The notes: a model not told the origin generated them from the letters alone. DNA of 38,381 nucleotides from Lacipirellula sp. (GCA_041750715.1 JBGSYU010000713.1:1-38381); one strand, 5' to 3'. Counted from the first letter of the stretch, positions 4,738 through 32,570 are shown. Program-made: numbers and translations.

Positions 4738-4752
4738 CGGTATGCCGTTTGC
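4738..4752 (+). promoter_or_regulatory. Putative sigma54 (-24/-12) promoter for yihY
   Basis: CGGTATGCCGTTTGC: GG-N10-GC with TTGC, ~48 nt before ATG 4800. Confidence 0.6.
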
Positions 4753-4799
4753 CAACTTCCCCTCTCTTCGCACATGCCATTCACCGGCCGAGACAAGTC

Positions 4800-5807
4800 A
4801 TGTCACATCCAGGGATGAGCCTGCTATCGGGCCGCACCACCGGGCGCATTCTCAAAGGCGCGATCTACGAGTGGAACGAGGATAAGGTTCCGCGGCGATC
4901 GCCTTCTACGCCGTCTTCTCGCTGACGCCGATCGTCGTCATCGCGTTCAGAATCGCCGAACATCGCTTCGGCTCCGAGGTCGCGCTCCGCGAAATTCTCG
5001 CCCAAGCGGCGTTTCTCATCGGCGCCGAAGGAGTCGCCGCCGTCGAGCTGCTCATACAGCACGGCCAGCCGCGAACCACCAACACGATCGACGCCGCGCT
5101 GGGCATCGGCGCCATGATCTTCGCCGCCACGGGCGTGTTCACCGAGCTGAAGGACTCGCTCAACACGATTTGGGAAGTTCAGCCCAAACCGGGCCTGGGG
5201 CTGTTGCAAATGGTTCGCGATCGGTTCTTTGCGTTTGCCATGGTGCTGGTGATTTGGTTCTTGATGCTGATCTCGCTGGTGACCAGCGCCGCGATGACGG
5301 CGCTGACGCGGTTCGCCGCCGACTATTGGACCGGCTTTCAGGTGATCGAAGCCGCGTTGTCGCTGGCGCTAATCACCGTTCTATTCGCGCTGATTTACAG
5401 GGTAGTGCCCGACGTGAAGGTCGCATGGCGCGACGTGTGGCGAGGCGCCCTGGTCACCGCCGGCCTGTTCGTCATCGGCAAATCGCTGTTCGGCCTGTAC
5501 CTGGGTCACAGCTCGCTGGGCAATAGCTACGGGGCCGCGGGATCGCTGGTGATGGACCTATTACTCGTGCCTGATTTTGCTCTTCGGCGCCGAAATGACG
5601 CAGGTCGAAGCGCGACTGCGCCACGCTCCATTGGAGCCAACTCACGAAGCGGTACACGTCACCGAGCATGCCCGCGTGCAGCAGGGAATTCCGCGAACGG
5701 AGGATATTGAGGAGGCGTTTCATGAAAGCGCACCGCCGCCAAGCAAAAAAGATGGCGGCGACACGAACGCTGCCGCCGCTCAGCGCGAGAGCGCAGGTTC
5801 TGGTTGA
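4800..5807 (+). pseudogene. yihY: YihY/virulence factor BrkB family membrane protein with two frameshifts (~4893 and ~5553)
   Basis: Three consecutive frames join to EWNEDKVPR / AAIAFYAVFSLTP...ATGVFTELKDSLNTIW...YGAAGSLV / WTYYSCLILLFGAE, the characteristic YihY motifs. Confidence 0.85.
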
Positions 5808-7744
5808 TCGATCCAAGTATCTCCCGAAGTTGACCCGCCCGCCGGTTGCGGGCCTTCGCGGAAGTTGGCGTGGAGCGAATCCCAGTCGATGGACAGGCGG
5901 CCGCCGGTGGCTTCATGCTGCTTAGCCCACGCGGTCAACAACTCCAGGCACGCATGGTCGATATATGTCAGCCGATCGAGTTCCACATGCAATTCCGCGT
6001 TGTCCGGCACCTGCTCCAGGGCGGCCGCGAGCTGCGGCAAGCGCACGAAGGTGGCGGCGCCGGCCAGATGCATGACGAATCGCCCGTCGAGTTCGTTCGC
6101 GTCCATCTTCACCTCGAGATGGGAAAACGTGTACAGCAGCTTAGCCGCGGCCAGGGTAATACCCACGATCACCCCGGTCAGCAGGTCTTTGGCGACAATG
6201 GTGATAAGCGTGGCGGCGTAGATGCCGACCTCGCCCCAGCCTGCCTGCCGAAGCTTCTTAATCTCCTTGAAGTTCACCAGTTTGTAGCCGGTATACACCA
6301 ACACGGCCGCGAGGCTGGCGGTGGGAATCATCTGCAGCAGCCCGGCCAGCACGACGACGAACACCAAAATCCACACCCCGTGGAGGATGGATGAAAGCCG
6401 CGTCTTGGCGCCGGCCTGCACGTTCGCCGAGCTGCGAACAATGACGCCGGTCATGGGCAGCGCCCCCAGCAGGCCGCACAACATGTTGCCGACGCCCTGC
6501 GCGGCGAGCTCGCGATCGTAGTTGGTGCGCGAGCCTTGCGAGAGCTGGTCGACCGCGGTGGCGCACAGCAGCGTCTCGGCGCTGGCGACGACGGCGATCA
6601 ACAGCGCCGTCGCCAGCAGGTCGCTCCACGGAGTGCTTTGGATGAGGCTCCAGGTCGGAAAGTGAATGTCGTCGGCCAGATTGGCGGGAATCTCGACATA
6701 CAGTACCGGCAGCAAAAAGTACGCCGCGACCAGCGTGGCGGCGACGATGGCTAAGAGCGGGCCCGGAACCAGCCGCAGCCTGTGCGGCGCGAACTTCAAC
6801 CACAGTACGATCACCGCAATGGTGAGAATGCCCAAACTTGCCGCCAGGCGATGGTTCTTCAGTCGCGAGGCGGCCACGTCGAGCGCGGCGACCGACTCGT
6901 CCTGCGTGCGGACGGCATCGACCGCCTTGCCCGAGTCGAGCGCAGCTTCGGCGTTGCGGCTGCGCTTAACGGCCTCGGCAAGCGCGGCCTTGGCGCGATT
7001 CAAGTGAATGGCGCCTGCGGATTCTTCTTCGACTTCCTCCAGGTCGTCCGCTAGATCGTCGAGCGCCTCGGAAATTCTCGCTTGCTCTTCCACCAAGTCG
7101 TGAAGCCGCGGCTCGACGATGCGGTCGAGCGCTTCGTGGTCGATGTTGTGGTAAGGAATCAGCTCGGCGATGTGCGTGCGGAGATTAATCTGGTCGTGAT
7201 GCAAGTCGCCCGTCGCCTGCAGGGCGTGCGTGCGAAACGCGCGCTCCTGTTTGCCCGAAATTCGCGGGATGCCGACGCCCTTGTACAGGGCCTGCGGAAT
7301 CGTGACGAGGTTCTCCAGCCCGCTGCCGCGCGGCTCGTCGTCGACCATTACATGAAATTGGCCGGCGAAAATCAGCACGCCAATGCCCGCGAGCATGCCG
7401 TGAATCACCGCTGGCGAAACGGCGCGGAACCACGGGCCCAGCCGCAGGGCGCCGGCGGCGATTTGCAGAATGCCGGCCAGCAGCACGACCAGGCCGAGCA
7501 TCTCCAGGCCCAGACGCTGGATGACTTCGTAGACGATCACCGTCAGCCCCGCCGCAGGGCCGCTCACTTGCAGCGGACACCCCGCTAGCGAGCCTGCGAC
7601 AAGTCCGCCGACGATGCCCGTGATCAGTCCCGCGGCCACAGGGGCGCCCGAGGCCAGCGCGACGCCCATGCACAGCGGCAACGCGACGAAAAAGACGACG
7701 ATCGAGGCGAGCAGGTCTTGCTTAAAGTATCTGGTGATCGTCAT
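5780..7744 (-). CDS. SulP/SLC26 family anion (likely bicarbonate) transporter with C-terminal STAS-like domain and a ~138 aa soluble insert
   Basis: DLLASIVVFFVALPLCMGVALASG, QVSGPAAGL, ELAAQGVGN, PMTGVIVRSSAN. Directly downstream of a carbonic anhydrase. Confidence 0.9.
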   Translation of the reverse strand: MTITRYFKQDLLASIVVFFVALPLCMGVALASGAPVAAGLITGIVGGLVAGSLAGCPLQVSGPAAGLTVIVYEVIQRLGLEMLGLVVLLAGILQIAAGALRLGPWFRAVSPAVIHGMLAGIGVLIFAGQFHVMVDDEPRGSGLENLVTIPQALYKGVGIPRISGKQERAFRTHALQATGDLHHDQINLRTHIAELIPYHNIDHEALDRIVEPRLHDLVEEQARISEALDDLADDLEEVEEESAGAIHLNRAKAALAEAVKRSRNAEAALDSGKAVDAVRTQDESVAALDVAASRLKNHRLAASLGILTIAVIVLWLKFAPHRLRLVPGPLLAIVAATLVAAYFLLPVLYVEIPANLADDIHFPTWSLIQSTPWSDLLATALLIAVVASAETLLCATAVDQLSQGSRTNYDRELAAQGVGNMLCGLLGALPMTGVIVRSSANVQAGAKTRLSSILHGVWILVFVVVLAGLLQMIPTASLAAVLVYTGYKLVNFKEIKKLRQAGWGEVGIYAATLITIVAKDLLTGVIVGITLAAAKLLYTFSHLEVKMDANELDGRFVMHLAGAATFVRLPQLAAALEQVPDNAELHVELDRLTYIDHACLELLTAWAKQHEATGGRLSIDWDSLHANFREGPQPAGGSTSGDTWIDQPEPALSR

Positions 7745-19784: not shown

Positions 19785-19860
19785 TCGCTTTTTTCGCTTT
19801 CTAATGCACGCCTTGGCAGCTAGCGGCCGTCGTTGCGATTGCTAGCCGATCGCGCCCGAT

Positions 19861-19875
19861 GGGCATAGCGTTTGC
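19861..19875 (+). promoter_or_regulatory. Putative sigma54 promoter for the 57 aa ORF
   Basis: GGGCATAGCGTTTGC, ~47 nt before ATG 19922. Confidence 0.6.
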
Positions 19876-19921
19876 GTCTTGTAAGGCGCAGAATCAATTT
19901 CGCCAGCAAGTGGAGGCAATC

Positions 19922-20095
19922 ATGAGTCGTGAAAATATCCGTCAACGAGCTACCGACGTACAGCGCCATTGGTCGTCTAGCGAGCGTAGCAGACGCGTCG
20001 AAGCCAGCCGGCTGCGTTGCACCGATCTGCTCTTTCGTATTACCGCCCAGCGCGAACCGATCCTTGCCGTTTGGCAGTCCAAAACGACGCGCTAA
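19922..20095 (+). CDS. Small basic hypothetical protein (57 aa)
   Basis: GGAGG RBS 5 nt before ATG, upstream sigma54-like motif and downstream terminator. Sequence MSRENIRQRATDVQRHWSSSERSRR... Confidence 0.55.
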   Translation: MSRENIRQRATDVQRHWSSSERSRRVEASRLRCTDLLFRITAQREPILAVWQSKTTR

Positions 20096-20136
20096 TCGCA
20101 AACGACGCCCTAATCGCGCTCGATTCGCTTCAGCGA

Positions 20137-20188
20137 ACAAATAAAGTCGCCCGGCGGAGCAACGTGCTTCGCCGGGCGATTGTCATTT
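20137..20188. terminator. Probable (bidirectional) intrinsic terminator
   Basis: TCGCCCGGCGGAGCA-ACG-TGCTTCGCCGGGCGA stem with an A-rich left flank and T-rich right flank, between convergent genes. Confidence 0.7.
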
Positions 20189-20215
20189 AGGTCAAAAGCC
20201 GTTGAAGGCGAAAGA

Positions 20216-20926
20216 CTACTCACCAGCGCGCGCCTGCCGCGGGGCGTCCTTGTCCTTCACTTTTTCCATCAGCTCTTTGGCTTTGGTCAAGTGCTGCTCG
20301 GTCGTCTTCATGCACTCGTTCAGCAGCGGCTTCATCTGTTGCGAAGCAAACGGCTCCGAACCCTTGATCCCGGCAAGCATGCCCATGTGGGCCATGCATT
20401 GTTGACCCAGGAACGCTTTGTCAAAATCGGCGCCTTCCTTTTCGTTCAATGCTTTGCGGGTCATCGCCAAGCACTCTTCCTTGATCTGCCGCGCCATCAT
20501 CAGTTGCGGGTCCATCGCGACAGCTTGCTGATCGTTGGCGGCCGGCTGGGAATCGCCGTCCGCATTGCGGAGCATAAGATTCATGCTAGCAAGCTGGGGC
20601 GCCGCCTTCTCAATCTTCGAGATCGCTTGCTGGTGATGCTCGATCAGCATCTCGGCGAACTTCTTCACGTCCTCGTGGTCCGCCTTCTCAACGCCCAATT
20701 TGGCCAGCGCCACTTCTTCTTGGTTCGACAACAACGCACACGCGGCGATGTGTTTGTCCAAATTGCCGGGTCGACCGGCCTGCCCCTGCTGATTTGACTG
20801 TCCAGCTTGTTGGGAATTGGCGCCGGCTGGACGTTCCTGCGTGGCGTCCGTCGCCGACTGGGCAAAGCTTTGGCCTGCACAGGCGACCGCCAAAACTAAC
20901 GCCGAAGCAATACAAAATTTCATCAC
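20216..20926 (-). CDS. Secreted DUF4142 (ferritin-like) domain protein
   Basis: Signal peptide; NQEEVALAKLG..VKKFAEMLIEHH, GADFDKAFLGQQCMAH, TEQHLTKAK; GGGAG RBS. Confidence 0.8.
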   Translation of the reverse strand: MMKFCIASALVLAVACAGQSFAQSATDATQERPAGANSQQAGQSNQQGQAGRPGNLDKHIAACALLSNQEEVALAKLGVEKADHEDVKKFAEMLIEHHQQAISKIEKAAPQLASMNLMLRNADGDSQPAANDQQAVAMDPQLMMARQIKEECLAMTRKALNEKEGADFDKAFLGQQCMAHMGMLAGIKGSEPFASQQMKPLLNECMKTTEQHLTKAKELMEKVKDKDAPRQARAGE

Positions 20927-21207
20927 AATCTCTCCCTAGTAATTTAAGTTAGGCGGCGTCCACGAAATTGGCCGCCGCGTTAGTGAACGGTGTCCTTTCA
21001 ATCATCCGAATCGAATCAAAAACATCTTCCTCCTTTGTGAGCAGGTCGCCGGGAACCGACCTCGACAACATCCCGAAGCCTTCGCAATGAGCCACGTTCG
21101 TCCCAGTCGTGATCTACGAGAAGTCACAGCGTCGCCGTTAAGAGTTAGCGACGACCGCATGACGGCCGCATTAAGTGCGATCTCCAAGTGCGATCTCCCT
21201 TAGGCGT

Positions 21208-21222
21208 GCAACGCATGTGCCG
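21208..21222 (-). promoter_or_regulatory. Putative sigma54 promoter for the DUF4142 gene
   Basis: Minus strand reads CGGCACATGCGTTGC. Confidence 0.65.
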
Positions 21223-21403
21223 CGATTCTCAACAATCCCTTAAAGGGCAAATTGCGGTGCTCCGCTTCATGCTGCCCGCAAATCGCCGCGTTGGTCATCG
21301 AGCAATCGCCGCTTACGACGATTCGGTTGCGCACGGACCGACCGCGCCGGTCAATCCAGGACCACAGCGCGAGTCGTTGCTTTTGGGGCGGCGTTTTATC
21401 CCT

Positions 21404-21439
21404 TGAACCAGGCGGTACGGCTGAACCAGGCGGTACGGC
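21404..21439. repeat. Perfect 18 bp tandem duplication
   Basis: TGAACCAGGCGGTACGGC x2, immediately upstream of a sigma54-like motif. Confidence 0.9.
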
Positions 21440-21445
21440 GACCTA

Positions 21446-21460
21446 CGGCACGGCATATGC
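21446..21460 (+). promoter_or_regulatory. Putative sigma54 promoter for the general stress protein (and possibly the kinase)
   Basis: CGGCACGGCATATGC, ~77 nt before ATG 21537. Confidence 0.6.
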
Positions 21461-21536
21461 TCGGATCGCTCCTACCCGTTCCGTCGGCGACATCGGGGTT
21501 GCTGCGCTCGCCGGCTTTCACCAAGAGGACCTAAAC

Positions 21537-22061
21537 ATGCACCGAGACGCCCACCGAGACGCCGTAGTAGCAGTTTTTTCTACCGCAGAAATCGCGAAGC
21601 AGGCGGTCGCCCGCCTCGACGGAGCCGGATTTGACGTACACGTCTCACTCATCACTCGCGGCGATGAAAGCGAACTGGACGCCTCGAGTCTGGTCGATCA
21701 CGGCGACCAGATGGAGAAGACCGCGGCCATCGGCGCAGCCGCTGGCGCCACGATCGGGCTCTTGGCCAGTTCGGCCTTGCTGATCGTTCCCGGCTTAGGC
21801 CCCGTCTTGTTCGTCGGAGCGATGGCCAGCGGAATTACTGGCGGATTGGTCGGTGGTCTCGTCGGCGCTATGGGTGGCTGGGGCGTTGAAGAAAATCACG
21901 TCCGCCAGTACGAACGCGAGTTGCAAAGCGGCAAGACGCTGGTTCTAGTCGCGGACGGCGACCCGCTAAGACTCGCCGAGGCTCAGTCGATACTGGATGA
22001 CACCGACGCCGAGCGAGTCGAGCTCCACGCGGAATCCGCCGACGTGCCCGTCGATAGGTGA
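21537..22061 (+). CDS. General stress protein 17M-like / Gly-zipper membrane protein
   Basis: GAGG RBS; AVVAVF...AVARLDGAGF..VSLI, Gly-rich hairpin IVPGLGPVLFVG..GGLVGGLVGAMGGWGV, YERELQSGKTLVLV. Confidence 0.75.
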   Translation: MHRDAHRDAVVAVFSTAEIAKQAVARLDGAGFDVHVSLITRGDESELDASSLVDHGDQMEKTAAIGAAAGATIGLLASSALLIVPGLGPVLFVGAMASGITGGLVGGLVGAMGGWGVEENHVRQYERELQSGKTLVLVADGDPLRLAEAQSILDDTDAERVELHAESADVPVDR

Positions 22062-22166
22062 TTCGCCGCCGCCGCATACGCCGCAATGTGGGCCGGATGG
22101 TCGCCCGTGCAGTGCCCGATTGCGGTTGTCGCCGAGAAATACGATAATTTCGTTATCTGAAACGAC

Positions 22167-25100
22167 ATGTCGGCGTCTCCGTGCCGAAGTCTTCCTCGGC
22201 TCACCCAACTGACGGAAGCGCAGCTCGACAATGCGCCCCCACTCGTTCTGAACGGCGAAGTCCCTCATATCCTGCTGGCCGAGGCCGACGCCGACGCGCG
22301 AGAGCACGTTAGGCGTTCGCTCGGCGACGGATTTCATGTAACTGCGTTCGCCGACGGGAAAGCCGCGCTACAAGCCGCCCTAGAGCACCCCCCCGATCTC
22401 GTGCTGACGGGAGTCGAGTTGCCGACGCTCGACGGTGGCGCGCTGATCCGCGCCCTCCGCAAGCACGAGCGTACCTCGGAAGTTCCCGTCATCATGCTGT
22501 CCGCGCGGATCGGCGAATCGGAGCTAGCCGGACTCGACGCCTGCGCCGACGAGTATCTTCTAACGCCCACGATCGCCAGCGAGCTTCGTGCGCGCGTGGC
22601 GGCCCAACTCTCACGAAGCAACCGGTGTCGGGAAGCCCTCAACCGCGAACGAGCGCTTCGGCTCGAAGCCGAGACGCAATTAGACCGGGTGAAGAAACAA
22701 TTCGCCCAGCGCGAGAACGTCGAGTCCGCGCTGCGTGATAGCGAAGAGCAATTTCGCGCGATCATGATGAACGCTCCGGTGGCGGTTTACATTAAGGATC
22801 TCGAAGGCCGCTACACCTTGTGCAATCCGCTGGCGTCGCAAGCGTTGGGCCGCACGGACGGCGCCGCCGGACTAACCGACCACGAACTTCTTCCCGCCGC
22901 CGCGGCGGAGCGTCTTCGGCAGGGCGATCTGCAGGTGATCTCGTCGGGCCAGTCGCTTGAGGTTGAAGAACTGGTGCCAACGCCGGCCGGCGATCGATTC
23001 TTTCTTTCCGTTAAATTCCCGTTGCGCAGCGCCGATGGGGAAGTCGCCGGCGTGTGCGGCGTCTCGGTCGACGTTACCGAGCGAAAGCAGGCGCAGCAAG
23101 CGTTGCGCGAGAGCGAGCGCCGGCTACTGCTCGCCACGCAGGCGGGCAAGGTCGGCGTCTGGGCCTGGGACGTCGACGGCAACCGCGTCTCGTGGTCGGA
23201 ATCGCTGCAAAATATCCTCGGCATTCACCCGCAGGAGCTGGGCGACTTCGAGGGGTTCGAGTCGCTCGTTCACGGCGACGACCGAGCCGATGTGCAGCGA
23301 TCGATTCTGCACGCTCTCGAAAACGACGCCCCGCTAGAAATCGAGTTTCGAGCCCTTCGTCCCGACGGAGGCTTCGTCTGGCTGTTCAGCAATGCGTCGG
23401 TCATCCGCGAGGGCGGCCGGGCGGTGCGAATGCTCGGCGCCACGCTGGACATCACCGAGCGAAAGCAGAGCGAAATCGCGTTGCGCGAGAGCGAGGAGCG
23501 GTTTCGCACGCTGGCCGACCACGCGCCGGTGGGTATTTTTCGGTCCGACGTCCGCGGCGGCAACGTCTTCGTCAACGAGCATTGGTGCGCCATGGCGGGC
23601 CTAACGAGAGACCAGGCGCACGGCGACGGATGGACCACCGCGATTCATCCCGACGATTACGATCGCGTAATGCAAGACTGGCAAGCGTCCATCGCGAATG
23701 GAGCGGCGTCGGCTGCGGAGTTTCGCTTCCTGCGGCCCGACGGCGTCGTTACCTGGCTGCAGGGAAACGCGGTGCCGCTGCGCGACGCGACAGGGAGCCT
23801 CATGGGCTACATCGGCACCATCGCCGATATCACCGCTCGCAAGGAAGCGGAGTCCGCGCTTCGCAATAGCGAGCGAATGTATCGCGCCATTGGCGAGTCC
23901 ATCGACTACGGCATTTGGGTGTGCGACGCCGAAGGCCAGAACATCTACACCAGCGAGTCCTTCTTGAAGCTAGTTGGACGCACGCAGGAGCAATGCTCCA
24001 GCCTGGGATGGAGCGACGTTCTCCATCCCGACGACGTCGAGCAGACGATAACGGCATGGAATCAATGCGTCAGAACCGGCGCCTCGTGGGACGTCGAGCA
24101 CCGGTTCCGCAGCGTCGACGGCGAGTGGCGCCCGGTGCTAGCGCGCGGCGTGCCGGTGAAAAACGAACGCGATGAGATCATCGCCTGGGTCGGAATCAAT
24201 CTCGACATCAGCGAGCTTAAAGAAGTCGAACACGAGCTGCGCGAGAGCGAGGCCCGGTTCCGCAACATGGCCGATAACGCCCCCGTGCTCATCTGGGTGC
24301 ATGGCGTCGGAGGGTGCCAGTATGTGAACGAGGAATTCATGCAGTTCGTCGGCGGCGCCCTGGCCGACGTGCAAGGAACGAATTGGACTAATTTTATTCA
24401 TCCGGACGACGGCGATTACGTCGAAAAATACCGTGAGGCGTTTGAGCGTCGCCAACCGATCGACGCCCAGTACCGCTTCCGCCGCGCCGACGGCCAATAC
24501 CGCTGGCTGGCCGCCACCGGTGCGCCCCGGTTCCGGCCGGACGGCGCCTTTCTCGGTTACGTCGGCTGCTCGGTCGATATCACCGACATCAAGAATTCCG
24601 AGGCCGCCCTGCAAGACGCCGATCGGCGAAAAGACGATTTCCTCGCCATGCTGGGGCACGAGCTTCGCAATCCGCTCGCCGGCATCGTCTCGGGGGCCCA
24701 GGTGCTCAGCATGCTTCCGCTCGACGACGAAGCCGCGGAAATGCAGGCCGTTATCGCGCGGCAGTCGTCGTACATGTCGCGTATCGTCGACGATCTGCTC
24801 GACGTGTCCCGCATTACCCGCGGCAAGCTGCGACTGCGGCACCAGTATACGAACCTTTGCGACCTGCTACGCGACACCGTCGACGACTATCGTAAGAGCC
24901 GTGCGCTCGACCGGTGTCAGCTACGCGTCGATATGCCGGACGCCGATCTGTGGGCGTGGGCCGATCCGGCGAGATTGGCCCAGGCGTTCTCAAATATTAT
25001 TCACAACAGCTATAAATTCAGCGACGGTCCGAACGTGATCACGATCGAGCTGGCCGCCGATTTGGAGCGGTCCGAGGCGACGATCGCCGTGAGCGACCGC

Positions 25101-25721
25101 GGCATTGGGATGTCGCGAGAAACGCTCGATCGGATTTTTGAGCCGTTCATCCAGGCCGACGCCAGCTTAGAGCGCACTCGCGGCGGCCTTGGGCTGGGTC
25201 TGGCCCTCACGAAGGGGTTAATCCGCCTGCATGGCGGCTCGGTCTCCGCGGACAGCGACGGACTTGGCCGGGGGGCGATCTTCACCATTAAGCTCCCCTC
25301 GGTTCCGGCGCCCGGCAGCGCCCCCGCGAGCGAGGCTCCGAGCGTCGTCGTGCAGCAGCGAGTTCTCATCATCGACGACCGGCGAGATGCCATTCTCCCC
25401 CTGCAGAAGATGCTGCAAATGGACGGTCACACCGTGGCCACGGCTGTGGACGGGCCTTCAGGCCTGGCGACGGCGGCCGACTTTTTGCCGCAGGTCGTGC
25501 TGTGCGATATCGCCTTGTCCGGTAATTTGAACGGTTACGAGGTATGCCGCGCCCTGCGGAATACGCCGCAAACCGCGTCGACCTACCTGGTCGCGGTCAC
25601 CGGATTCGGGCACGAAGACGCCAAACGGATGGCGAAGGAAGCGGGGTTCGACTACCACCTGACCAAGCCCGTGGGAAAGCAGCAACTTCGCGACCTGCTC
25701 GCTCGGCGCCCTACTTTTTGA
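22167..25721 (+). CDS. Cytoplasmic hybrid sensor kinase: pseudo-REC, 5 PAS, HisKA, HATPase_c, REC
   Basis: Five PAS/PAC units ending DVTERK, DITERK, DITARK, DISELK and DITDIK; H-box MLGHELRNPL; N box NIIHNSYKF; G boxes DRGIG and GGLGLGL; C-terminal REC (IIDD, LCDI, LTKP). No TM helix seen. Confidence 0.93.
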   Translation: MSASPCRSLPRLTQLTEAQLDNAPPLVLNGEVPHILLAEADADAREHVRRSLGDGFHVTAFADGKAALQAALEHPPDLVLTGVELPTLDGGALIRALRKHERTSEVPVIMLSARIGESELAGLDACADEYLLTPTIASELRARVAAQLSRSNRCREALNRERALRLEAETQLDRVKKQFAQRENVESALRDSEEQFRAIMMNAPVAVYIKDLEGRYTLCNPLASQALGRTDGAAGLTDHELLPAAAAERLRQGDLQVISSGQSLEVEELVPTPAGDRFFLSVKFPLRSADGEVAGVCGVSVDVTERKQAQQALRESERRLLLATQAGKVGVWAWDVDGNRVSWSESLQNILGIHPQELGDFEGFESLVHGDDRADVQRSILHALENDAPLEIEFRALRPDGGFVWLFSNASVIREGGRAVRMLGATLDITERKQSEIALRESEERFRTLADHAPVGIFRSDVRGGNVFVNEHWCAMAGLTRDQAHGDGWTTAIHPDDYDRVMQDWQASIANGAASAAEFRFLRPDGVVTWLQGNAVPLRDATGSLMGYIGTIADITARKEAESALRNSERMYRAIGESIDYGIWVCDAEGQNIYTSESFLKLVGRTQEQCSSLGWSDVLHPDDVEQTITAWNQCVRTGASWDVEHRFRSVDGEWRPVLARGVPVKNERDEIIAWVGINLDISELKEVEHELRESEARFRNMADNAPVLIWVHGVGGCQYVNEEFMQFVGGALADVQGTNWTNFIHPDDGDYVEKYREAFERRQPIDAQYRFRRADGQYRWLAATGAPRFRPDGAFLGYVGCSVDITDIKNSEAALQDADRRKDDFLAMLGHELRNPLAGIVSGAQVLSMLPLDDEAAEMQAVIARQSSYMSRIVDDLLDVSRITRGKLRLRHQYTNLCDLLRDTVDDYRKSRALDRCQLRVDMPDADLWAWADPARLAQAFSNIIHNSYKFSDGPNVITIELAADLERSEATIAVSDRGIGMSRETLDRIFEPFIQADASLERTRGGLGLGLALTKGLIRLHGGSVSADSDGLGRGAIFTIKLPSVPAPGSAPASEAPSVVVQQRVLIIDDRRDAILPLQKMLQMDGHTVATAVDGPSGLATAADFLPQVVLCDIALSGNLNGYEVCRALRNTPQTASTYLVAVTGFGHEDAKRMAKEAGFDYHLTKPVGKQQLRDLLARRPTF

Positions 25722-25884
25722 GCCGAACAACGAAGTTTGGTTTCAGTCGCGGCGGCGCCTTGAAACTCGAGCAAGAGGCGAAAGCCTCGTTACTCTCGTA
25801 AATCGGCAGGACTGAGATAAAATGCGTAGCAATGAGTCGCCGCTCCCCATAGAACCAGGCGAACGGCAAAGTGCCGCGCGCACC

Positions 25885-25942
25885 GTCATTCTGAGGTACT
25901 CCGAAGAATCTGGCCAGACTCTTCGGAATACCTCAGAGTGAC
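25885..25942. repeat. GTCATTCTGAG-family near-perfect palindrome (copy 1)
   Basis: 58 bp GTCATTCTGAGGTACTCCGAAGAATCTGGCCAGACTCTTCGGAATACCTCAGAGTGAC; near-identical copy at 32519. Confidence 0.85.
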
Positions 25943-26051
25943 AGCTTCCGGACTTTGCAGTTTTCCTGCCCACAAGATGGCGAGATCGCCATCACACAGT
26001 TTTTTTCACCAACTTGGGACGCCCGACGCCCGGGCGCCAAACCATCGAACT

Positions 26052-27497
<1,446 letters not shown>

Positions 27498-27563
27498 CCA
27501 GTTCCGCGTACGTCGGTCAACTGCGTGTTCGTCCGTCATCAACTCCGCGTACGTCGGTCAACC

Positions 27564-27626
27564 GTCATCCTGAGCGGAGCGAAGGATCTGGCGAGATCCT
27601 AGATTCTTCGCTCCGCTCGGAATGAC
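27564..27626. repeat. GTCATCCTGAG-family inverted repeat, preceded by a 19 bp direct repeat (27503, 27544)
   Basis: GTCATCCTGAGCGGAGCGAAGGATCT / AGATTCTTCGCTCCGCTCGGAATGAC: 26 bp arms with 3 mismatches. TCCGCGTACGTCGGTCAAC occurs twice just upstream. Confidence 0.8.
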
Positions 27627-27651
27627 ATGCTCCTCGTCGTAATATTTCGAG

Positions 27652-27879
27652 TCACCAGGGCTTCAGTTTCCATCCAAGAATAAAGCCGACGCCGAACGCC
27701 CACATCGCCACCACTTCGGGCCGCTCGCGGGCGTATTGCGAGAAGAACTCAGCCGCGGCCTCCGGCACGCTTAGCTCGTCGCTGCCGCGTCCAGATTGGC
27801 CCCACGTCAGGTCGCCGGAATTCTCCTGGCTTCCGAAGTTTGAAGGGAGTCCAGTACCAGTAGCTGTTGTTCCGGGCAT
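27652..27879 (-). CDS. Small tail-anchored protein, DUF883/YqjD C-terminus-like
   Basis: GGAGG RBS; YARERPEVVAMWAFGVGFILGWKLKPW C-terminal anchor. Confidence 0.75.
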   Translation of the reverse strand: MPGTTATGTGLPSNFGSQENSGDLTWGQSGRGSDELSVPEAAAEFFSQYARERPEVVAMWAFGVGFILGWKLKPW

Positions 27880-27923
27880 GGTCGCCTCCGAGAAAGTTTC
27901 GAGGGGTTAACCGGCGAGCAGTA

Positions 27924-28370
27924 TCAGTCGGAACGCGTCGCCGTCAAGGGTTGAGTCAGCATTTCCTTCAACCAGCGAACGTTGTGCCGAAGTTCGCTGC
28001 GAAAGCGATGGAGCATCGGCTGCTCGCGCTTGAGCAGCATCGCGCCGACGGTGCCAAAGATTGCCGCGATCGCCACGCTCACCGCCGCGGCAATGAGCAT
28101 CGACGTCGACAACGATAATTCAGTCGCCGCAGCCAGGTAGTATCCCAAGCTCAAGAGCAAGACCGGCACGCTGGCCAACGCAAAAACCAACGCCGCGACG
28201 AGAGCCGCCACTCCTCTCACGAAGGCGCGGCCCCACTCTCGCAAGTCAGCTTGTAGTAGATCGGCCAGCAGTTCGGCGAGCGTCAGTACGTCGCTGCCAA
28301 GCTGTCGCACGCTCCCGCTCTTGCCTCGTTCAATGTCGGCCGATGGCGCGTGCTCGTTTTGCGTCGTCAT
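27924..28370 (-). CDS. YqjE-like (phage-holin-superfamily) two-TM membrane protein
   Basis: LGSDVLTLAELLADLLQADLRE helix, two TM segments, RSELRHNVRWLKE. Start overlaps the upstream stop (ATGA). Confidence 0.75.
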   Translation of the reverse strand: MTTQNEHAPSADIERGKSGSVRQLGSDVLTLAELLADLLQADLREWGRAFVRGVAALVAALVFALASVPVLLLSLGYYLAAATELSLSTSMLIAAAVSVAIAAIFGTVGAMLLKREQPMLHRFRSELRHNVRWLKEMLTQPLTATRSD

Positions 28371-28573
28371 CGCTTCACCAGCCTTCCCAAGACGATGCCA
28401 ATGGCCAGCCCGGCGGCAACGGTCGCCAAGGGGTTCGCGCCGACGGCGCTCTTGGCCGCGTCGATAATTCGCGTTCGCCACGCAGGGGCCATGGCGGCAC
28501 GGTCCGTCCGCGGCGTCCGGAAAACGGCTGCTGAGGCGCCGCGAGCGTGGCCATCCTCAAGTCGATTGATCAT
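28367..28573 (-). CDS. Small tail-anchored DUF883-like protein
   Basis: VGANPLATVAAGLAIGIVLGRLVKR C-terminus; translationally coupled to the next gene. Confidence 0.7.
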   Translation of the reverse strand: MINRLEDGHARGASAAVFRTPRTDRAAMAPAWRTRIIDAAKSAVGANPLATVAAGLAIGIVLGRLVKR

Positions 28574-28593
28574 GGTCGTCGTCGCTTCCGCCT

Positions 28594-29103
28594 CTAGCGA
28601 GGCCGGTTGAACTTCTCGCGAATTTCCACTTGCCGTGCGAGTTCCTCGTCGGCGGAGTTCTGCTCATCATCTCGTTCGTCGCGACCCGCCTTCGGCGTGC
28701 GATTCTGCCCGAGCGTTGCTACGAAGTGTTGGCCGTAATTCATGGCAGCCCGAAAGACGAGCGGCGCCGCCATACCTGCGAGCGTGGCGAACATCCCCTT
28801 GCTGGCGGTAGCCGCTTCGGGGAGCGCCGATGCCGTCTTGATGCCGTGCTTTTTAAGCAGAGCGATCAACTCCTGGGCGTCGGCGCTACTAAGGTCGGTG
28901 GAGGCGGCCTTGTCCTTCCGTTTAGGCACTAGCAAGAATCCCAACGCCGCCGCGGCGCCTAGGCAAAGCAACGGGTGCTTTCGCACATGGCCGCGCCAAT
29001 CGGCCAGGGCCTTCGCCGACCGCACGATGCCCGCCACGTCGTCACCCACTTCGAGACGCACCTCGTCCATGCGTTTGCGGATATTGTCGGCCGATTCGCT
29101 CAT
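28594..29103 (-). CDS. DUF3618-like / YqjK-like membrane-associated protein
   Basis: SADNIRKRMDEVR N-terminal helix and VRKHPLLCLGAAAALGFLLVPK hydrophobic motif; lies within a csbD-DUF883-yqjE-type run. Confidence 0.65.
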   Translation of the reverse strand: MSESADNIRKRMDEVRLEVGDDVAGIVRSAKALADWRGHVRKHPLLCLGAAAALGFLLVPKRKDKAASTDLSSADAQELIALLKKHGIKTASALPEAATASKGMFATLAGMAAPLVFRAAMNYGQHFVATLGQNRTPKAGRDERDDEQNSADEELARQVEIREKFNRPR

Positions 29104-29214
29104 ATTAAAAATCATCCTCGTAAGCAAAAACCTTCGGAGCGTTAACTTTCGTAACTGACGCTGCCGACCACCCTACAAGGATAGCCCTACAAGGATAGCA
29201 CGAGGAATCGCGAC

Positions 29215-29263
29215 TAAAAAAATTCGGTCGCTAAATGCTGCCGCATTATCGCCGCAGCGACCG
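29215..29263 (-). terminator. Possible terminator after csbD
   Basis: CGGTCGCT...AGCGACCG stem followed on the minus strand by AATTTTTTT. Confidence 0.45.
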
Positions 29264-29265
29264 CG

Positions 29266-29697
29266 TTAATACCGCGAGCCCGACCTCATCATCAGGCCGA
29301 TGACGACCCCCGCGATCAGCCCGGCGCCGAACCCTACGGCTAACGACTCCATCGGACGCTGTTGAATCATTCGCTCGGTTTGCCCGTAGCCGCCACGCAT
29401 CATTTCCGCGGCGCGTTGCCGTGCGTCGTCGACCGACTCGACGGCGCTCGAGGCGTAGCTGCGAACCGCCTCGGCAGCCTTGCTGACTCCACCCGCGCCG
29501 CCGGCGGACACATCGGAAAGGAATTGCTCGATGCCTTCGCGGGCTTCGCCCGTTTTCCGTTGAATGACCCCGACCAATTGGTCGACGCTGCCGCGAGCCT
29601 TCTGGAGGTCATCTTGCGTAAGTTGGCCCCATCGTTCGTGCAGCTTGCCCTTGATCTCGTTCCAGTTTCCCTCAAGCGTCTGTTGATTCATTTTCAT
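29266..29697 (-). CDS. csbD: CsbD/YjbJ family protein fused to a DUF883-like C-terminal anchor
   Basis: MNQQTLEGNWNEIKGKLHERWGQLTQDDL...DQLVGVIQRKTG (CsbD), then IQQRPMESLAVGFGAGLIAGVVIGLMMR. Confidence 0.88.
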   Translation of the reverse strand: MKMNQQTLEGNWNEIKGKLHERWGQLTQDDLQKARGSVDQLVGVIQRKTGEAREGIEQFLSDVSAGGAGGVSKAAEAVRSYASSAVESVDDARQRAAEMMRGGYGQTERMIQQRPMESLAVGFGAGLIAGVVIGLMMRSGSRY

Positions 29698-29780
29698 CGC
29701 CTCAATCCTTCTCTTAATGGTAATGCTAGTGTCTGCTGGTCGCTTTCGGACGCACGACGGCCGAGATGACTACGGTAGGT

Positions 29781-29795
29781 GCAATAGCCATGCCG
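29781..29795 (-). promoter_or_regulatory. Putative sigma54 promoter for the csbD operon
   Basis: Minus strand reads CGGCATGGCTATTGC, ~84 nt before ATG 29697. Confidence 0.7.
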
Positions 29796-30021
29796 TTCGG
29801 GCAACGGGCATTTAAGACTTCACAAATATCCCCGAACTGGCCGTTCGCGTCCCGGTTGCGTCGAGCCTTTGCACGCTTTGCTTAAGCGAAAGCCACCGTG
29901 GTCGCGCAGCGACCCAGGGCTAGGATTATAGGCCGTCCGCATGCTAGTTACGCAGCTAGTATAACCTGCCCGGATGACTCAGAAAACGCATTCCAGAATA
30001 AGCGGCTTCATAACTCCATAG

Positions 30022-30036
30022 TGGCACGAAGAATGC
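30022..30036 (+). promoter_or_regulatory. Putative sigma54 promoter towards the BON gene
   Basis: TGGCACGAAGAATGC. Confidence 0.6.
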
Positions 30037-30140
30037 CCCTTCTGCCAGTCGCGTCGGAACGCCTGGCCTACGTCGTGCCGTTTAATCGGCGCTGCCGGCC
30101 GACCGCCGCGATAATAATCCATTTCGGGAGCCACGGAAGT

Positions 30141-30235
30141 GCCGACGGGCGAATCGCCGAGCAAGTCGGCCGATCGTCGCTACGGTGTCCGCGCCGATCG
30201 GCGGCTTGCCGCCTTCGCCCGTCGGTTGGTTTTTT
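30141..30235 (+). terminator. Long stem-loop with U-tract in the leader of the BON gene
   Basis: GCCGACGGGCGAA/TTCGCCCGTCGGT, GCAAGTCG/CGGCTTGC and GCCGATCG/CGATCGGC stacked helices, followed by TTGGTTTTTT. Confidence 0.55.
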
Positions 30236-30298
30236 CCGTTGGCTCCGCTTCGCTGTGGATTCGATCACTCCGCACGTCGCTCCCTCCGTTCAGGGTCT

Positions 30299-30685
30299 AT
30301 GTCTATCCGCAAACAGGCGACGGAGCTCGATGAGGATAGGGCAGGCTCGGCCCTTTCCAAGCAGGACGCCTGTGGGGTCGGCAGTCCGCCGTCCCACAGC
30401 TTGGCGCCGTTGGAACGCCAAGCTGTCGCTCGGCAGGGCACGGCGGCTTCCCAGCACAGTCGAGATCGGCAGGAACTGCGCATCCGCGTCGTTGCCTCAT
30501 TAGTCGACTCGGGATACGCTGCTCTAGCGCTGGTCGGATGCGACGTCGAAGAGCAGCGCGTGGTCCTCAGCGGGTCCGTCCCCAGCTATCATCTCAAGCA
30601 GTTGGCGCAAGTGTACGTCCAGCGCGTCGAGGGGATCGGCGAGATCGACAACCGTCTGGAAGTGCGCCGGCGCGGCCGCGGTTAG
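30299..30685 (+). CDS. BON-domain protein
   Basis: LRIRVVASL...VVLSGSVPSYHLKQLAQ..VEGIGEIDNRLEV. Confidence 0.85.
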   Translation: MSIRKQATELDEDRAGSALSKQDACGVGSPPSHSLAPLERQAVARQGTAASQHSRDRQELRIRVVASLVDSGYAALALVGCDVEEQRVVLSGSVPSYHLKQLAQVYVQRVEGIGEIDNRLEVRRRGRG

Positions 30686-30856
30686 GCCAAAAGGCTCGCG
30701 GGATCGCGGTGCGGAACTCTTCACCACCAGTCGTCATGCTTGCGGGGCGCTGGAGCGACTCGAGCATGACGGAAGAGGTCGGCTAACAAAAAAGCGTTGG
30801 CGATCGCCCCGCGACCGCCAACGCTTGAACTACGGAACCGCTTGACCGCGCCGTCG

Positions 30857-31501
30857 CTACTTAATTTCCCGCAACATCCGGTCGAGCTCGGCGACAGCAA
30901 GCTGCACGTTCTTTTGCTCGGTCTGCCACTTCATGATTTCGGCCGAGTTCATTTCGCCCAGGGCTTCGTCGACGCGCTCGCGTTGCGCCTTGAGGCTCTC
31001 GATCTGATCTTCGGTCGCTTGTTCGGCGGCGCCGTCTCGATTGTCTTCGCGATTCTCAAGCTGCTCGATCTTCTGATCGGCCGACGCGAGCGACTGCTCC
31101 GTTTGCTGCGCAAACGCGTTGCGGGCTTGAGTCTGCTTCAGTTTGGCCTCGGTCGTCTGCAACTCTTGCTGAGCGTCGGCGACGTCGGCTTGCTCGTCTT
31201 GAATGTCGGCGTTCGCATCGGTGCGAACTTCAGCGAGATCCCGTTGCTCTTCCCTCACGCCTGCGGAGGCGACGTCGCCGTCTAACACCGGCTTGTTGGC
31301 TTCGCGGCGGGCAGCGTCGAGATCGTCCCGCTCCGCCGCCATGTCGACGTCGGCGTCGGCTCTCGCGTCGGCGACGTCTTGCTGTTCTTCCTGCACGTCC
31401 GCCCGGGCGTCGGCGACGTCTTCCCGCGTCGTGCCTTCTTGGCAGCCTGCAACGAGCAGCGCCAACGATGCGAAACAGGGATAGTAAAGCCTGGCGATCA
31501 T
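30857..31501 (-). CDS. Acidic coiled-coil lipoprotein
   Basis: Lipobox LVAGC; repeated DVADAR/DVADAQ helical motifs, rich in D/E/Q/A. Confidence 0.75.
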   Translation of the reverse strand: MIARLYYPCFASLALLVAGCQEGTTREDVADARADVQEEQQDVADARADADVDMAAERDDLDAARREANKPVLDGDVASAGVREEQRDLAEVRTDANADIQDEQADVADAQQELQTTEAKLKQTQARNAFAQQTEQSLASADQKIEQLENREDNRDGAAEQATEDQIESLKAQRERVDEALGEMNSAEIMKWQTEQKNVQLAVAELDRMLREIK

Positions 31502-31569
31502 AGTAGGGTTCCCTTCTAAAACGTGAACTGGAGGTCTGGTTACGATTCGTCGAGCTCAAATCGTTGGGC

Positions 31570-31707
31570 TTAAAAGTCGCAACCGTTAATGAACAGGGCG
31601 ATCAGAATGATGGGTATCGGCAAGCCCAGGAGCCATGCGAAAATTCCGTACTTGATTTTGCCGCTCCTGTCCGGCGCTATTGTCGCACTTTTTAATCTTC
31701 GTTTCAT
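31570..31707 (-). CDS. 45 aa single-TM small protein (not in ORF track)
   Basis: MKRRLKSATIAPDRSGKIKYGIFAWLLGLPIPIILIALFINGCDF; GGAG RBS 9 nt upstream; near-consensus sigma54 motif ~81 nt upstream. Confidence 0.7.
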   Translation of the reverse strand: MKRRLKSATIAPDRSGKIKYGIFAWLLGLPIPIILIALFINGCDF

Positions 31708-31787
31708 GTCATGATTCTCCGAGGCATTGCGTCACTGTGCATCGAACGTCGCGTTCGCCGTTCTAGCACGCTTGGGTAGATCGATAT

Positions 31788-31802
31788 GCAATTGACGTGC
31801 CA
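31788..31802 (-). promoter_or_regulatory. Putative sigma54 promoter (consensus match)
   Basis: Minus strand reads TGGCACGTCAATTGC, close to TGGCACG-N4-TTGC. Confidence 0.8.
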
Positions 31803-31919
31803 ATAGAAAATTGCCTGTTCCTGCGAGTAATCGAGCGGCTTGAGGCGGGAGGTGAGTGTTCGTCGAGGGTCCAGCGCGATGCGGCGATGATCCGTCTGGA
31901 TCGGCGTTGATAGCTGGAA

Positions 31920-31934
31920 CGGTACGGTGTTTGC
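31920..31934 (+). promoter_or_regulatory. Putative sigma54 promoter for the HPt gene
   Basis: CGGTACGGTGTTTGC, ~99 nt before ATG 32033. Confidence 0.6.
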
Positions 31935-32032
31935 CCCATTACTCGGATAACAATCGCGAGTCGCATCAACGCCGGCGAGGCCTCTGGCTAAAATCAACTC
32001 GGTACGAGCGCTCGCGTTACCGGTGGTCACCC

Positions 32033-32437
32033 ATGAAGAGCACTATTCAATCGCAAAACAACGGACCGCAAGGTCGTAACGACGTACCGCAGGGGTACGC
32101 GGCGATGGACGTCGATGACGCGCTTCGTCGACTCGGCGAGGATACGCAGCTTTTGCGAGATATCATTCAGATCTATCTGGAAGACTCGCCCAGCATGGTC
32201 GAAAGGATTCATTCCGCGGTTGCGACGGCGGATGCATTGGGCCTGCAGCACGCAGCTCATCAACTCAAGGGCATTGCCGCCACGCTGAGCGCGCCCGACG
32301 TCGTCGGCGTGGCTTCGCGCTTGGAGCACATGGGCGCATCGCGCGATCTTTCAGATGCCGCCAAAGCGCTCGTTGAGGTCGATCGGCGCGTCTCTTCGCT
32401 GAATCAGGCGGTGCAGAAGTTCTTGCGGCGAAAGTAG
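32033..32437 (+). CDS. Stand-alone HPt (histidine phosphotransfer) protein
   Basis: DVDDALRRLGEDTQLLRDIIQIYLED...AAHQLKGIAATLSA...LE: HPt HxLKG motif. Confidence 0.9.
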   Translation: MKSTIQSQNNGPQGRNDVPQGYAAMDVDDALRRLGEDTQLLRDIIQIYLEDSPSMVERIHSAVATADALGLQHAAHQLKGIAATLSAPDVVGVASRLEHMGASRDLSDAAKALVEVDRRVSSLNQAVQKFLRRK

Positions 32438-32518: not shown

Positions 32519-32570
32519 GTCATTCTGAGGTACTCCGAAGAATCTGGCCAGACCCTTCGGATTACCTCAG
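32519..32570. repeat. GTCATTCTGAG-family palindrome (copy 2, right end degenerate)
   Basis: GTCATTCTGAGGTACTCCGAAGAATCTGGCCAGACCCTTCGGATTACCTCAG, nearly identical to 25885-25936. Confidence 0.85.

Follow-up and report, generated by a model that had tools for sequence, protein, structure and literature searches.

We examined a stretch of 38,381 nucleotides from Lacipirellula sp. (GCA_041750715.1 JBGSYU010000713.1:1-38381; 'the window' below is this whole stretch), the largest contig of a 4.29 Mb assembly that is 89% complete and has a G+C content of 63%. Between positions 19861 and 32437 it carries predicted stress-protein genes, a hybrid histidine kinase, a stand-alone histidine phosphotransfer (HPt) protein and an NtrC-type activator, interspersed with sigma-54 (-24/-12) promoter motifs; a sequence-only reading had proposed that a relay from kinase through HPt to activator places the stress effectors under sigma-54. 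Genes were called with our own hexamer caller, which misses short open reading frames (ORFs), so that 'non-coding' is approximate throughout. The features are as follows, with strands in brackets.

4738..4752 (+), sigma-54 motif upstream of yihY, a gene with two frameshifts; matrix score 14.2, without enhancer
19861..19875 (+), sigma-54 motif upstream of the 57-amino-acid ORF; matrix score 16.7
19922..20095 (+), conserved small protein of 57 amino acids; no Pfam family match
20216..20923 (-), DUF4142 ferritin-like exported protein; Pfam
21208..21222 (-), sigma-54 motif for DUF4142; matrix score 15.1
21292..21308 (no strand), predicted enhancer common to the DUF4142 and yflT promoters; score 10.6, 79 and 147 bp to the respective GG
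21446..21460 (+), sigma-54 motif for the yflT-like gene and probably the kinase; matrix score 15.4
21537..22061 (+), YflT-like general stress protein; Pfam E 2e-4, below cut-off
22167..25721 (+), hybrid kinase with pseudo-receiver (G82), five PAS domains, HisKA (H831), HATPase and receiver (D1114)
26052..27497 (+), sigma-54 activator with receiver (D52), AAA+ domain (GAFTGA at 217-222) and Fis-type helix-turn-helix
27652..29103 (-), four small membrane-anchored genes 3' of csbD: 75 amino acids, YqjE-like (Pfam holin_3_6), DUF883_C (Pfam match below cut-off) and 169 amino acids
29266..29697 (-), CsbD with a DUF883-like C-terminal tail; Pfam
29781..29795 (-), sigma-54 motif for the csbD operon; matrix score 17.9
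29899..29915 (no strand), predicted enhancer midway between the csbD and RNA/BON promoters; score 15.8, 113 and 116 bp
30022..30036 (+), sigma-54 motif for the hairpin RNA and the BON gene; matrix score 15.9
30130..30234 (+), conserved rod-like structured RNA ending in a U-tract; no Rfam family
30299..30685 (+), BON-domain protein; Pfam, start codon inferred
30857..31501 (-), coiled-coil lipoprotein; weak match to the sll1863 stress family, below cut-off
31570..31707 (-), conserved membrane peptide of 45 amino acids
31788..31802 (-), sigma-54 motif on the side of the 45-amino-acid ORF; matrix score 22.0, the genome's top-scoring site
31857..31873 (no strand), weak predicted enhancer for the 45-amino-acid ORF and HPt promoters; 9.5, under the threshold of 10, 64 and 56 bp
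31920..31934 (+), sigma-54 motif for HPt; matrix score 13.1
32033..32437 (+), stand-alone HPt with its conserved His (H76); Pfam

All eight motifs of the sequence-only reading were recovered at their positions and strands with GG-N10-GC spacing, and its gene labels were confirmed by Pfam for DUF4142, kinase, activator, YqjE-like, CsbD, BON and Hpt; the YflT-like and DUF883_C labels stayed below cut-off. Its pairing of motifs with genes needed correction at yihY, because of the frameshifts, and at 30022, where the hairpin RNA precedes BON. It had noticed no motif before the copper, carbonic anhydrase or sulfatase genes, and the matrix of relatives described below found none there above 11. The pattern GGYAY-N5-WTGC, which was fitted to the eight sites themselves, matched the window exactly at these eight (2.0 expected; 0 of 100 shuffles reached 8), and a loose consensus with two free mismatches was not enriched (38 versus 40 expected), so the weight falls on independent tests. 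In the genome's non-coding DNA, GG[CT]A[CT]-N5-[TA]TGC occurred 82 times compared to 32-42 at eight other spacers, and it was depleted in coding DNA (118 versus 148-190); the stricter, consensus-derived GGCA[CT]-N5-TTGC was found 48 times genome-wide versus 11-19 at other spacers. Of these 82 sites, 66 pointed towards the next gene, 13 were opposed and 3 had no next gene, compared to about 20 towards and 14 opposed for shifted spacers. A matrix built from 104 sites of relatives only scored the window's eight at 13.1-22.0 and no further non-coding window position above 11, and the window makes up 0.9% of the assembly yet holds 8 of the 82 sites. The proposed comparison with background thus came out favourably by spacing, orientation and the relatives' matrix alike: the sites are specific to the 10-base distance between GG and GC, are intergenic and face a downstream gene, and we consider the predicted promoters almost certainly real.

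We then assessed conservation of the csbD promoter. At same-genus loci the cluster is largely syntenic, with the motif preceding csbD in 11 of 11 and the orthologue of the 57-amino-acid ORF in all 7 loci that hold it. Within the same order we used a matrix trained on 60 sites from the own genome outside the window and counted a score of at least 10 within 300 bp as a hit. After removal of the duplicates L145 and L146, 24 of 27 csbD orthologues had a site, compared to 3 and 1 in shifted controls. Of the three orthologues without one, two were second genes behind a site; short csbD paralogues had one in 8 of 13 cases. Long csbD genes from two families of other orders, chosen by open-frame length among 150 listed of 181 matches, carried a site in 19/20 and 17/20 cases (controls, 0/40), and the 30 top-scoring, mostly short csbD genes had one within 300 bp in just 11. 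The frequency was 9/21 in other classes of the phylum and 3/12, 1/6, 1/16 and 1/16 in four other phyla (6/50; controls, 2/50 and 3/50), the latter count leaving out L339 and L341 (genes identical to kept rows), L346 (an unpublished genome) and 11 more loci of the last phylum (extra G563 copies, weak hits). Strong sigma-54 sites precede csbD at the other-phyla loci L334, L336, L337, L347 and L354. No claim is based on the unpublished genome G448. Among 67 csbD upstream regions (L132 dropped beforehand) the sigma-54 pattern occurred in 55 (1.7 expected), the EcfG pattern GGAAC-N16-CGTT in 1 (0.5 expected), a SigB pattern in 2 (1.4 expected) and an RpoS-like pattern in none. The expectation that orthologous promoters retain the motif was therefore borne out at same-genus, same-order and other-order csbD loci.

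The relay parts listed earlier are likewise all encoded: a five-PAS hybrid kinase, a stand-alone HPt and an NtrC-type activator with intact GAFTGA. The His-Asp-His-Asp residues are present (kinase H831 and D1114, HPt H76, activator D52), and only the kinase's N-terminal receiver is degenerate, with Gly82 replacing the phospho-Asp. One rpoN gene and 11 full sigma-54 activator domains are found in the genome, which thus holds both the sigma factor and the GAFTGA-bearing activator that such promoters require; no sigma-54 site was found upstream of the activator gene in the window. Members of the genus share 75-88% activator identity, and the class-wide range is about 55-69%. Of 40 relatives, 25 had both activator and csbD, 11 yielded neither and 4 were discordant. 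In 16 of 68 genomes, many of them fragmented assemblies, the best activator match lay no more than 12 kb from a csbD gene, and a limit of 50 kb raised this to 21.

A FastTree phylogeny of 108 activators (without the duplicates L037 and L038, and with the outgroup thinned by three in four loci) placed the window protein in a clade of 62 loci with support of 0.95. An HPt domain lay within 10 kb at 40/62 clade loci versus 2/36 outside and a stress gene nearby at 52/62 versus 1/36, in a sample where each activator locus was a best match and the same loci had seeded the stress-gene models; without the genus, the clade figures were 33/50 and 40/50. Of 44 HPt domains, 23 stood alone and 21 formed fusions with a kinase or receiver domain, and at locus L013 kinase, HPt and activator are consecutive. 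Synteny of activator, HPt and stress genes thus held up in clade neighbourhoods compared to outside loci, and the relay parts are linked or fused. Clade activators neighbour hybrid or HPt-fused kinases, whereas near paralogues mostly stand beside classical ones; sampled proteins of families f28 (4/4) and f26 (5/6) belong to a sister clade whose neighbours are classical kinases. The kinases' sensor domains differ among loci (PAS, CHASE3, DUF4118 and putative GAF-like insertions). The genome has one clade activator, the next being at most 46% identical. We consider the HPt a probable intermediate in signalling to the activator. A related stress cluster includes a receiver-ANTAR protein (L023:7228-7827).

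A de novo motif search in the sequences 5' of 63 csbD promoters returned a 17-bp palindrome, TGRTCGC-N3-GCGAYCA, with a log-likelihood of 134 versus 26-30 in shuffles. It was recovered separately in the own order and in family f27, with 17/23 and 13/20 above the 95% null in cross-tests, and was not found in f26 (0/19), though f26 keeps the promoters; the f26 activators sampled lie mostly outside the clade. We found it at 48 of 165 held-out sigma-54 sites in clade loci (4.1 expected) and, in a scan spanning 220 bp with a score threshold of 10, at 16 of 81 own-genome sites, compared to 2.9% of random non-coding windows. It lies about 60-190 bp upstream, sometimes in tandem, and its spacing from the GG follows a phase of about 10.5 bp (n = 79, R = 0.32; shared sites and kinship inflate the nominal p of 3e-4). 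In the window each divergent promoter pair has one copy in between, with scores of 15.8, 10.6 and, weakly, 9.5. Hits at 30801, which is a terminator-like hairpin, and at 19836, just 18 bp from the promoter, were rejected. The palindrome is new here, and we regard it as a candidate, and probable, binding site of the activator; the clade's nearly invariant recognition helix fits one shared site. That the predicted enhancer tracks the activator clade is supported by these comparisons and adds support to the interpretation.

Sigma-54 sites elsewhere in the own genome precede treZ, treY-glgX, an lmo0937-family gene, topoisomerase IB, an FGase-glutathione synthetase-like operon, two more csbD operons and DUF3309, with a weak site before DUF892. 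BON/OsmY, YqjE/ElaB, YflT, DUF892, lmo0937 and trehalose synthesis are general-stress outputs of EcfG, SigB or RpoS systems, so window and genome between them hold a typical set of general-stress effectors, and a general stress role of the predicted system is quite probable. Sites also precede flgB, glnB, two csrA genes, dnaK and groEL (named by eye), indicating that sigma-54 is a global factor and the stress genes one part of its range. Both csrA promoters carry the enhancer, as does that of a fatty-acid desaturase, and dnaK, groEL and flgB lack it; for dnaK and groEL this makes a separate heat-shock activator likely. Several single loci are recorded here for their gene content. Contig C319 holds two csrA-like genes (1041-1526 and 4785-5291), each with a sigma-54 site and predicted enhancer, and contigs C563 and C620 hold dnaK and groEL (by eye) with strong sites and no enhancer. 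At locus L041 a Cu/Zn superoxide dismutase lies behind a site and enhancer. Contig C5:3184-6484 has, with a weak sigma-54 site, another stand-alone HPt immediately 5' of DUF892 and of a gene of 700 amino acids resembling catalase by eye. On contig C171:3117-4041 an ECF-type sigma gene lies 238 bp behind a strong sigma-54 site, a possible sigma cascade.

A 105-nucleotide rod-like hairpin with a U-tract at its end separates the 30022 site from BON; it was seen in 8 of 10 aligned sequences, folds with z-scores of -2.6 to -7.8 and shows double changes at 8 of 34 pairs; its outer stem is invariant, and so uninformative on structure, and its apical loop is invariant as well. No Rfam family matched the RNA at its gathering score. 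The own genome has a single copy, as do the 8 same-genus genomes, of 13, in which the RNA model matched strongly; one of the eight lies outside the training set. The model gave two weak hits elsewhere; the exact pattern occurred in 0 of 200 other genomes of the class. This conserved, unclassified hairpin RNA is new here, and it would be a small RNA or else attenuate the BON operon.

Other observations in the window concern its gene integrity and repeats. The yihY/BrkB-family gene (about 4799-5810, +) has its two frameshifts, and further yihY genes lie on contigs C395 and C559; an in-frame stop near 2258 splits the copper P-type ATPase gene (1271-3616, +), by decay or assembly error. Palindromic intergenic repeats at 25884-25946, 27561-27630 and 32519-32570 have about 90-150 BLAST matches genome-wide, and one copy sits between kinase and activator. 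The DUF1328 and AI-2E transporter genes of relatives are missing at 29104-29265 and 30686-30856, and an AI-2E transporter orthologue is found on contig C733 of the own genome. Perfect short tandem duplications occur at 21404-21439 (18 bp) and 21540-21563 (12 bp), two places in a genome with 92 such duplications, 67 of them non-coding.

We interpret the block as the core of a general stress regulon driven by the relay, a palindrome-bound activator and sigma-54 promoters, and assign this reading a probability of about 0.63. A cytoplasmic cue, which the PAS domains suggest to be redox, energy or oxygen, would turn on PAS hybrid kinases, several of which may converge on the HPt; phosphate would pass from His831 to Asp1114, HPt His76 and activator Asp52, and the activator would oligomerise at the enhancer and open sigma-54 holoenzyme at the promoter on one side or on both, so that one enhancer could serve each back-to-back pair. 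Because the hpt gene and the yflT-kinase unit have sigma-54 sites and the activator gene has none, positive feedback is suggested: the activator, expressed from a non-sigma-54 promoter, would be present ahead of stress, and kinase and HPt would be boosted by it. The csrA copies and the hairpin RNA may add a post-transcriptional arm. The wiring of stress effectors to sigma-54 through kinase, HPt and activator is thus supported at the sequence level with two qualifications, that a single activator probably does not serve every stress promoter, given 11 activators and several promoters without the enhancer, and that the partner kinase varies between genomes instead of being a single orthologue.

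A number of results weigh against this reading. Only 16 of 81 own-genome sites carry the enhancer, which is missing at treZ, treY, topoisomerase IB, the FGase operon, the csbD operon of contig C35 and yihY; in the held-out set, unlabelled genes had it about as commonly (24/97) as labelled stress or relay genes (24/68). Sites near close paralogues outside the clade had it in 5 of 19 cases, and those paralogues may therefore read the palindrome too. With just 7 candidates scored per genome, family f26 had csbD in 40/49 genomes and an activator match in 21/49, and f28 had csbD in 2/42 and an activator-like match in 28/42; activator-csbD linkage was absent in f18 (0/9) and f26 (0/16). Kinase or HPt was not found nearby in 4 of 11 same-genus loci (three at a contig edge), the genome has 2 HPt proteins and 27 sigma-70-family matches, and all counts overstate significance, since related genomes are kin rather than independent. 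Finally, rpoN of Rhodopirellula baltica showed no heat induction and went down under salt in the available part of one study (PMC2754498).

Part of this evidence would also fit sigma-54 stress promoters shared among several activators, with the neighbouring one driving only the enhancer-bearing subset. The 11 activators, the presence of the enhancer at 16 of 81 own sites, the enhancer-free treY/treZ and topoisomerase IB promoters, the f26 promoters without enhancer and the 5/19 sites in paralogue neighbourhoods all point that way; however, there is just one clade activator in the genome, with the next at most 46% identical, and a 220-bp scan would miss weak or distant enhancers. We hold shared control to be possible, at somewhat worse than even odds, and it narrows our reading while agreeing with most of it. 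Alternatively, the regulon might be a programme for the life cycle or the stationary phase (a switch from swimmer to sessile cells, remodelling of the envelope, storage of carbon) instead of a cross-protective response. Enhancers before both csrA copies and the desaturase, the many membrane or exported targets, and motifs before flagellar and chaperone genes (by eye) are consistent with it, but the targets match known general stress outputs: treY/treZ, lmo0937-family genes, YflT, DUF892 and BON are SigB or RpoS targets. In addition, csbD is a direct EcfG target in Sphingopyxis according to the available part of PMC7083833, and we consider a life-cycle programme unlikely.

As to the relay, the adjacent or a classical kinase might phosphorylate the activator directly, with the HPt serving another receiver. 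Kinase and activator are adjacent and co-oriented with the HPt 4.5 kb off, a second HPt exists on contig C5, and 22 of 62 clade loci have no HPt within 10 kb. Hybrid kinases, however, usually pass phosphate to their own receiver first, and the clade's association with hybrid or HPt-fused kinases, compared to the mostly classical partners of near paralogues, makes direct phosphorylation quite improbable. Chance motifs or unproductive RpoN binding, with a sigma-70-family factor transcribing the genes, would agree with the unenriched loose consensus and with the presence of a short conserved primary-like sigma-70 and many ECF factors. Against this, exact spacing is kept across orders at 50-240 bp from the gene (0/40 in shifted controls), the upstream palindrome is phased, and EcfG, SigB and RpoS-like patterns are unenriched, leaving chance motifs very improbable.

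Studholme and Dixon reportedly predicted the sigma-54 regulon of Planctomycetia in 2004. For the same class, Carrera-Reyna et al. (2025; PMC12316311) predicted sigma-54 motifs before chaperones, UspA, MscS, csrA, kinases and activators; the available main text does not contain csbD, trehalose or 'general stress', which Figure 8 or the COG lists may include, and neither an activator clade nor an HPt relay nor an enhancer is named in the available passages. In the part of its supplement at hand six COG numbers were unmatched, a result that is uninformative because the positive controls COG1551 and COG0668 were missing too. Wecker et al. (PMC2754498, in the part available) suggested rpoN control of a thioredoxin, and the available parts of PMC8103513 and PMC3162934 hold nothing on planctomycete general stress control. 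We found no description of this system in the literature searched, which mostly lacks subscription journals; the activator clade, the enhancer and the RNA extend the earlier interpretation. Planctomycetes are abundant in soils and sediments and on algae, have no recognised RpoS, SigB or PhyR, and their general stress response is not described in the literature we found. A candidate regulator, promoter class, operator sequence and relay can now be named for a class with cultured, genetically tractable members, giving a regulon context to many unnamed small proteins and an RNA. If the reading is true, sigma-54, usually tied to single pathways, is the master of an ATP-gated survival programme.

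The nearest architectural parallel is the Vibrio LuxN/LuxQ/CqsS-LuxU-LuxO relay, in which several hybrid kinases and a stand-alone HPt feed a response regulator that drives small RNAs (PMC5394107, in the part available) and that is a sigma-54 activator (NCBIfam description). The two are not orthologous, the LuxO model reaching 330 of 800 bits and the LuxQ model 172 of 1200, both below cut-off, and unlike the Lux relay the system described here has a PAS-rich kinase without an autoinducer-sensing domain and outputs that are stress proteins. With NtrB-NtrC it shares a receiver-AAA-HTH activator and resembles it in the predicted upstream palindromic enhancer, the NtrC site likewise being a 17-bp palindrome, but the activator misses the TIGR01818 equivalog cut-off (494.5 of 558.6 bits), and the predicted HPt relay and many scattered targets set it apart. 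EcfG-NepR-PhyR of Alphaproteobacteria, SigB of Bacillota and RpoS of Gammaproteobacteria resemble it in csbD output and in the proposed convergence of several kinases, but no dedicated stress sigma factor exceeded a model cut-off here: RpoS (a proteobacterial model, so that an analogue may exist), SigB and PRK09191, which we take to be the PhyR model, were below cut-off in 5/5 genomes each, in a search that did not include EcfG and NepR themselves. Its promoters, moreover, are -24/-12 elements with an upstream palindrome and not of the GGAAC/CGTT or SigB type. Taken together, the sigma-54 motifs, palindrome, kinase, HPt and activator likely form a stress switch unlike RpoS, SigB and EcfG. We see an even chance that Planctomycetia hold a fourth type of general stress system, in which interchangeable hybrid kinases, an HPt, one ancient activator clade and a class-wide enhancer control protective proteins, csrA and, in Lacipirellula, a structured small RNA.

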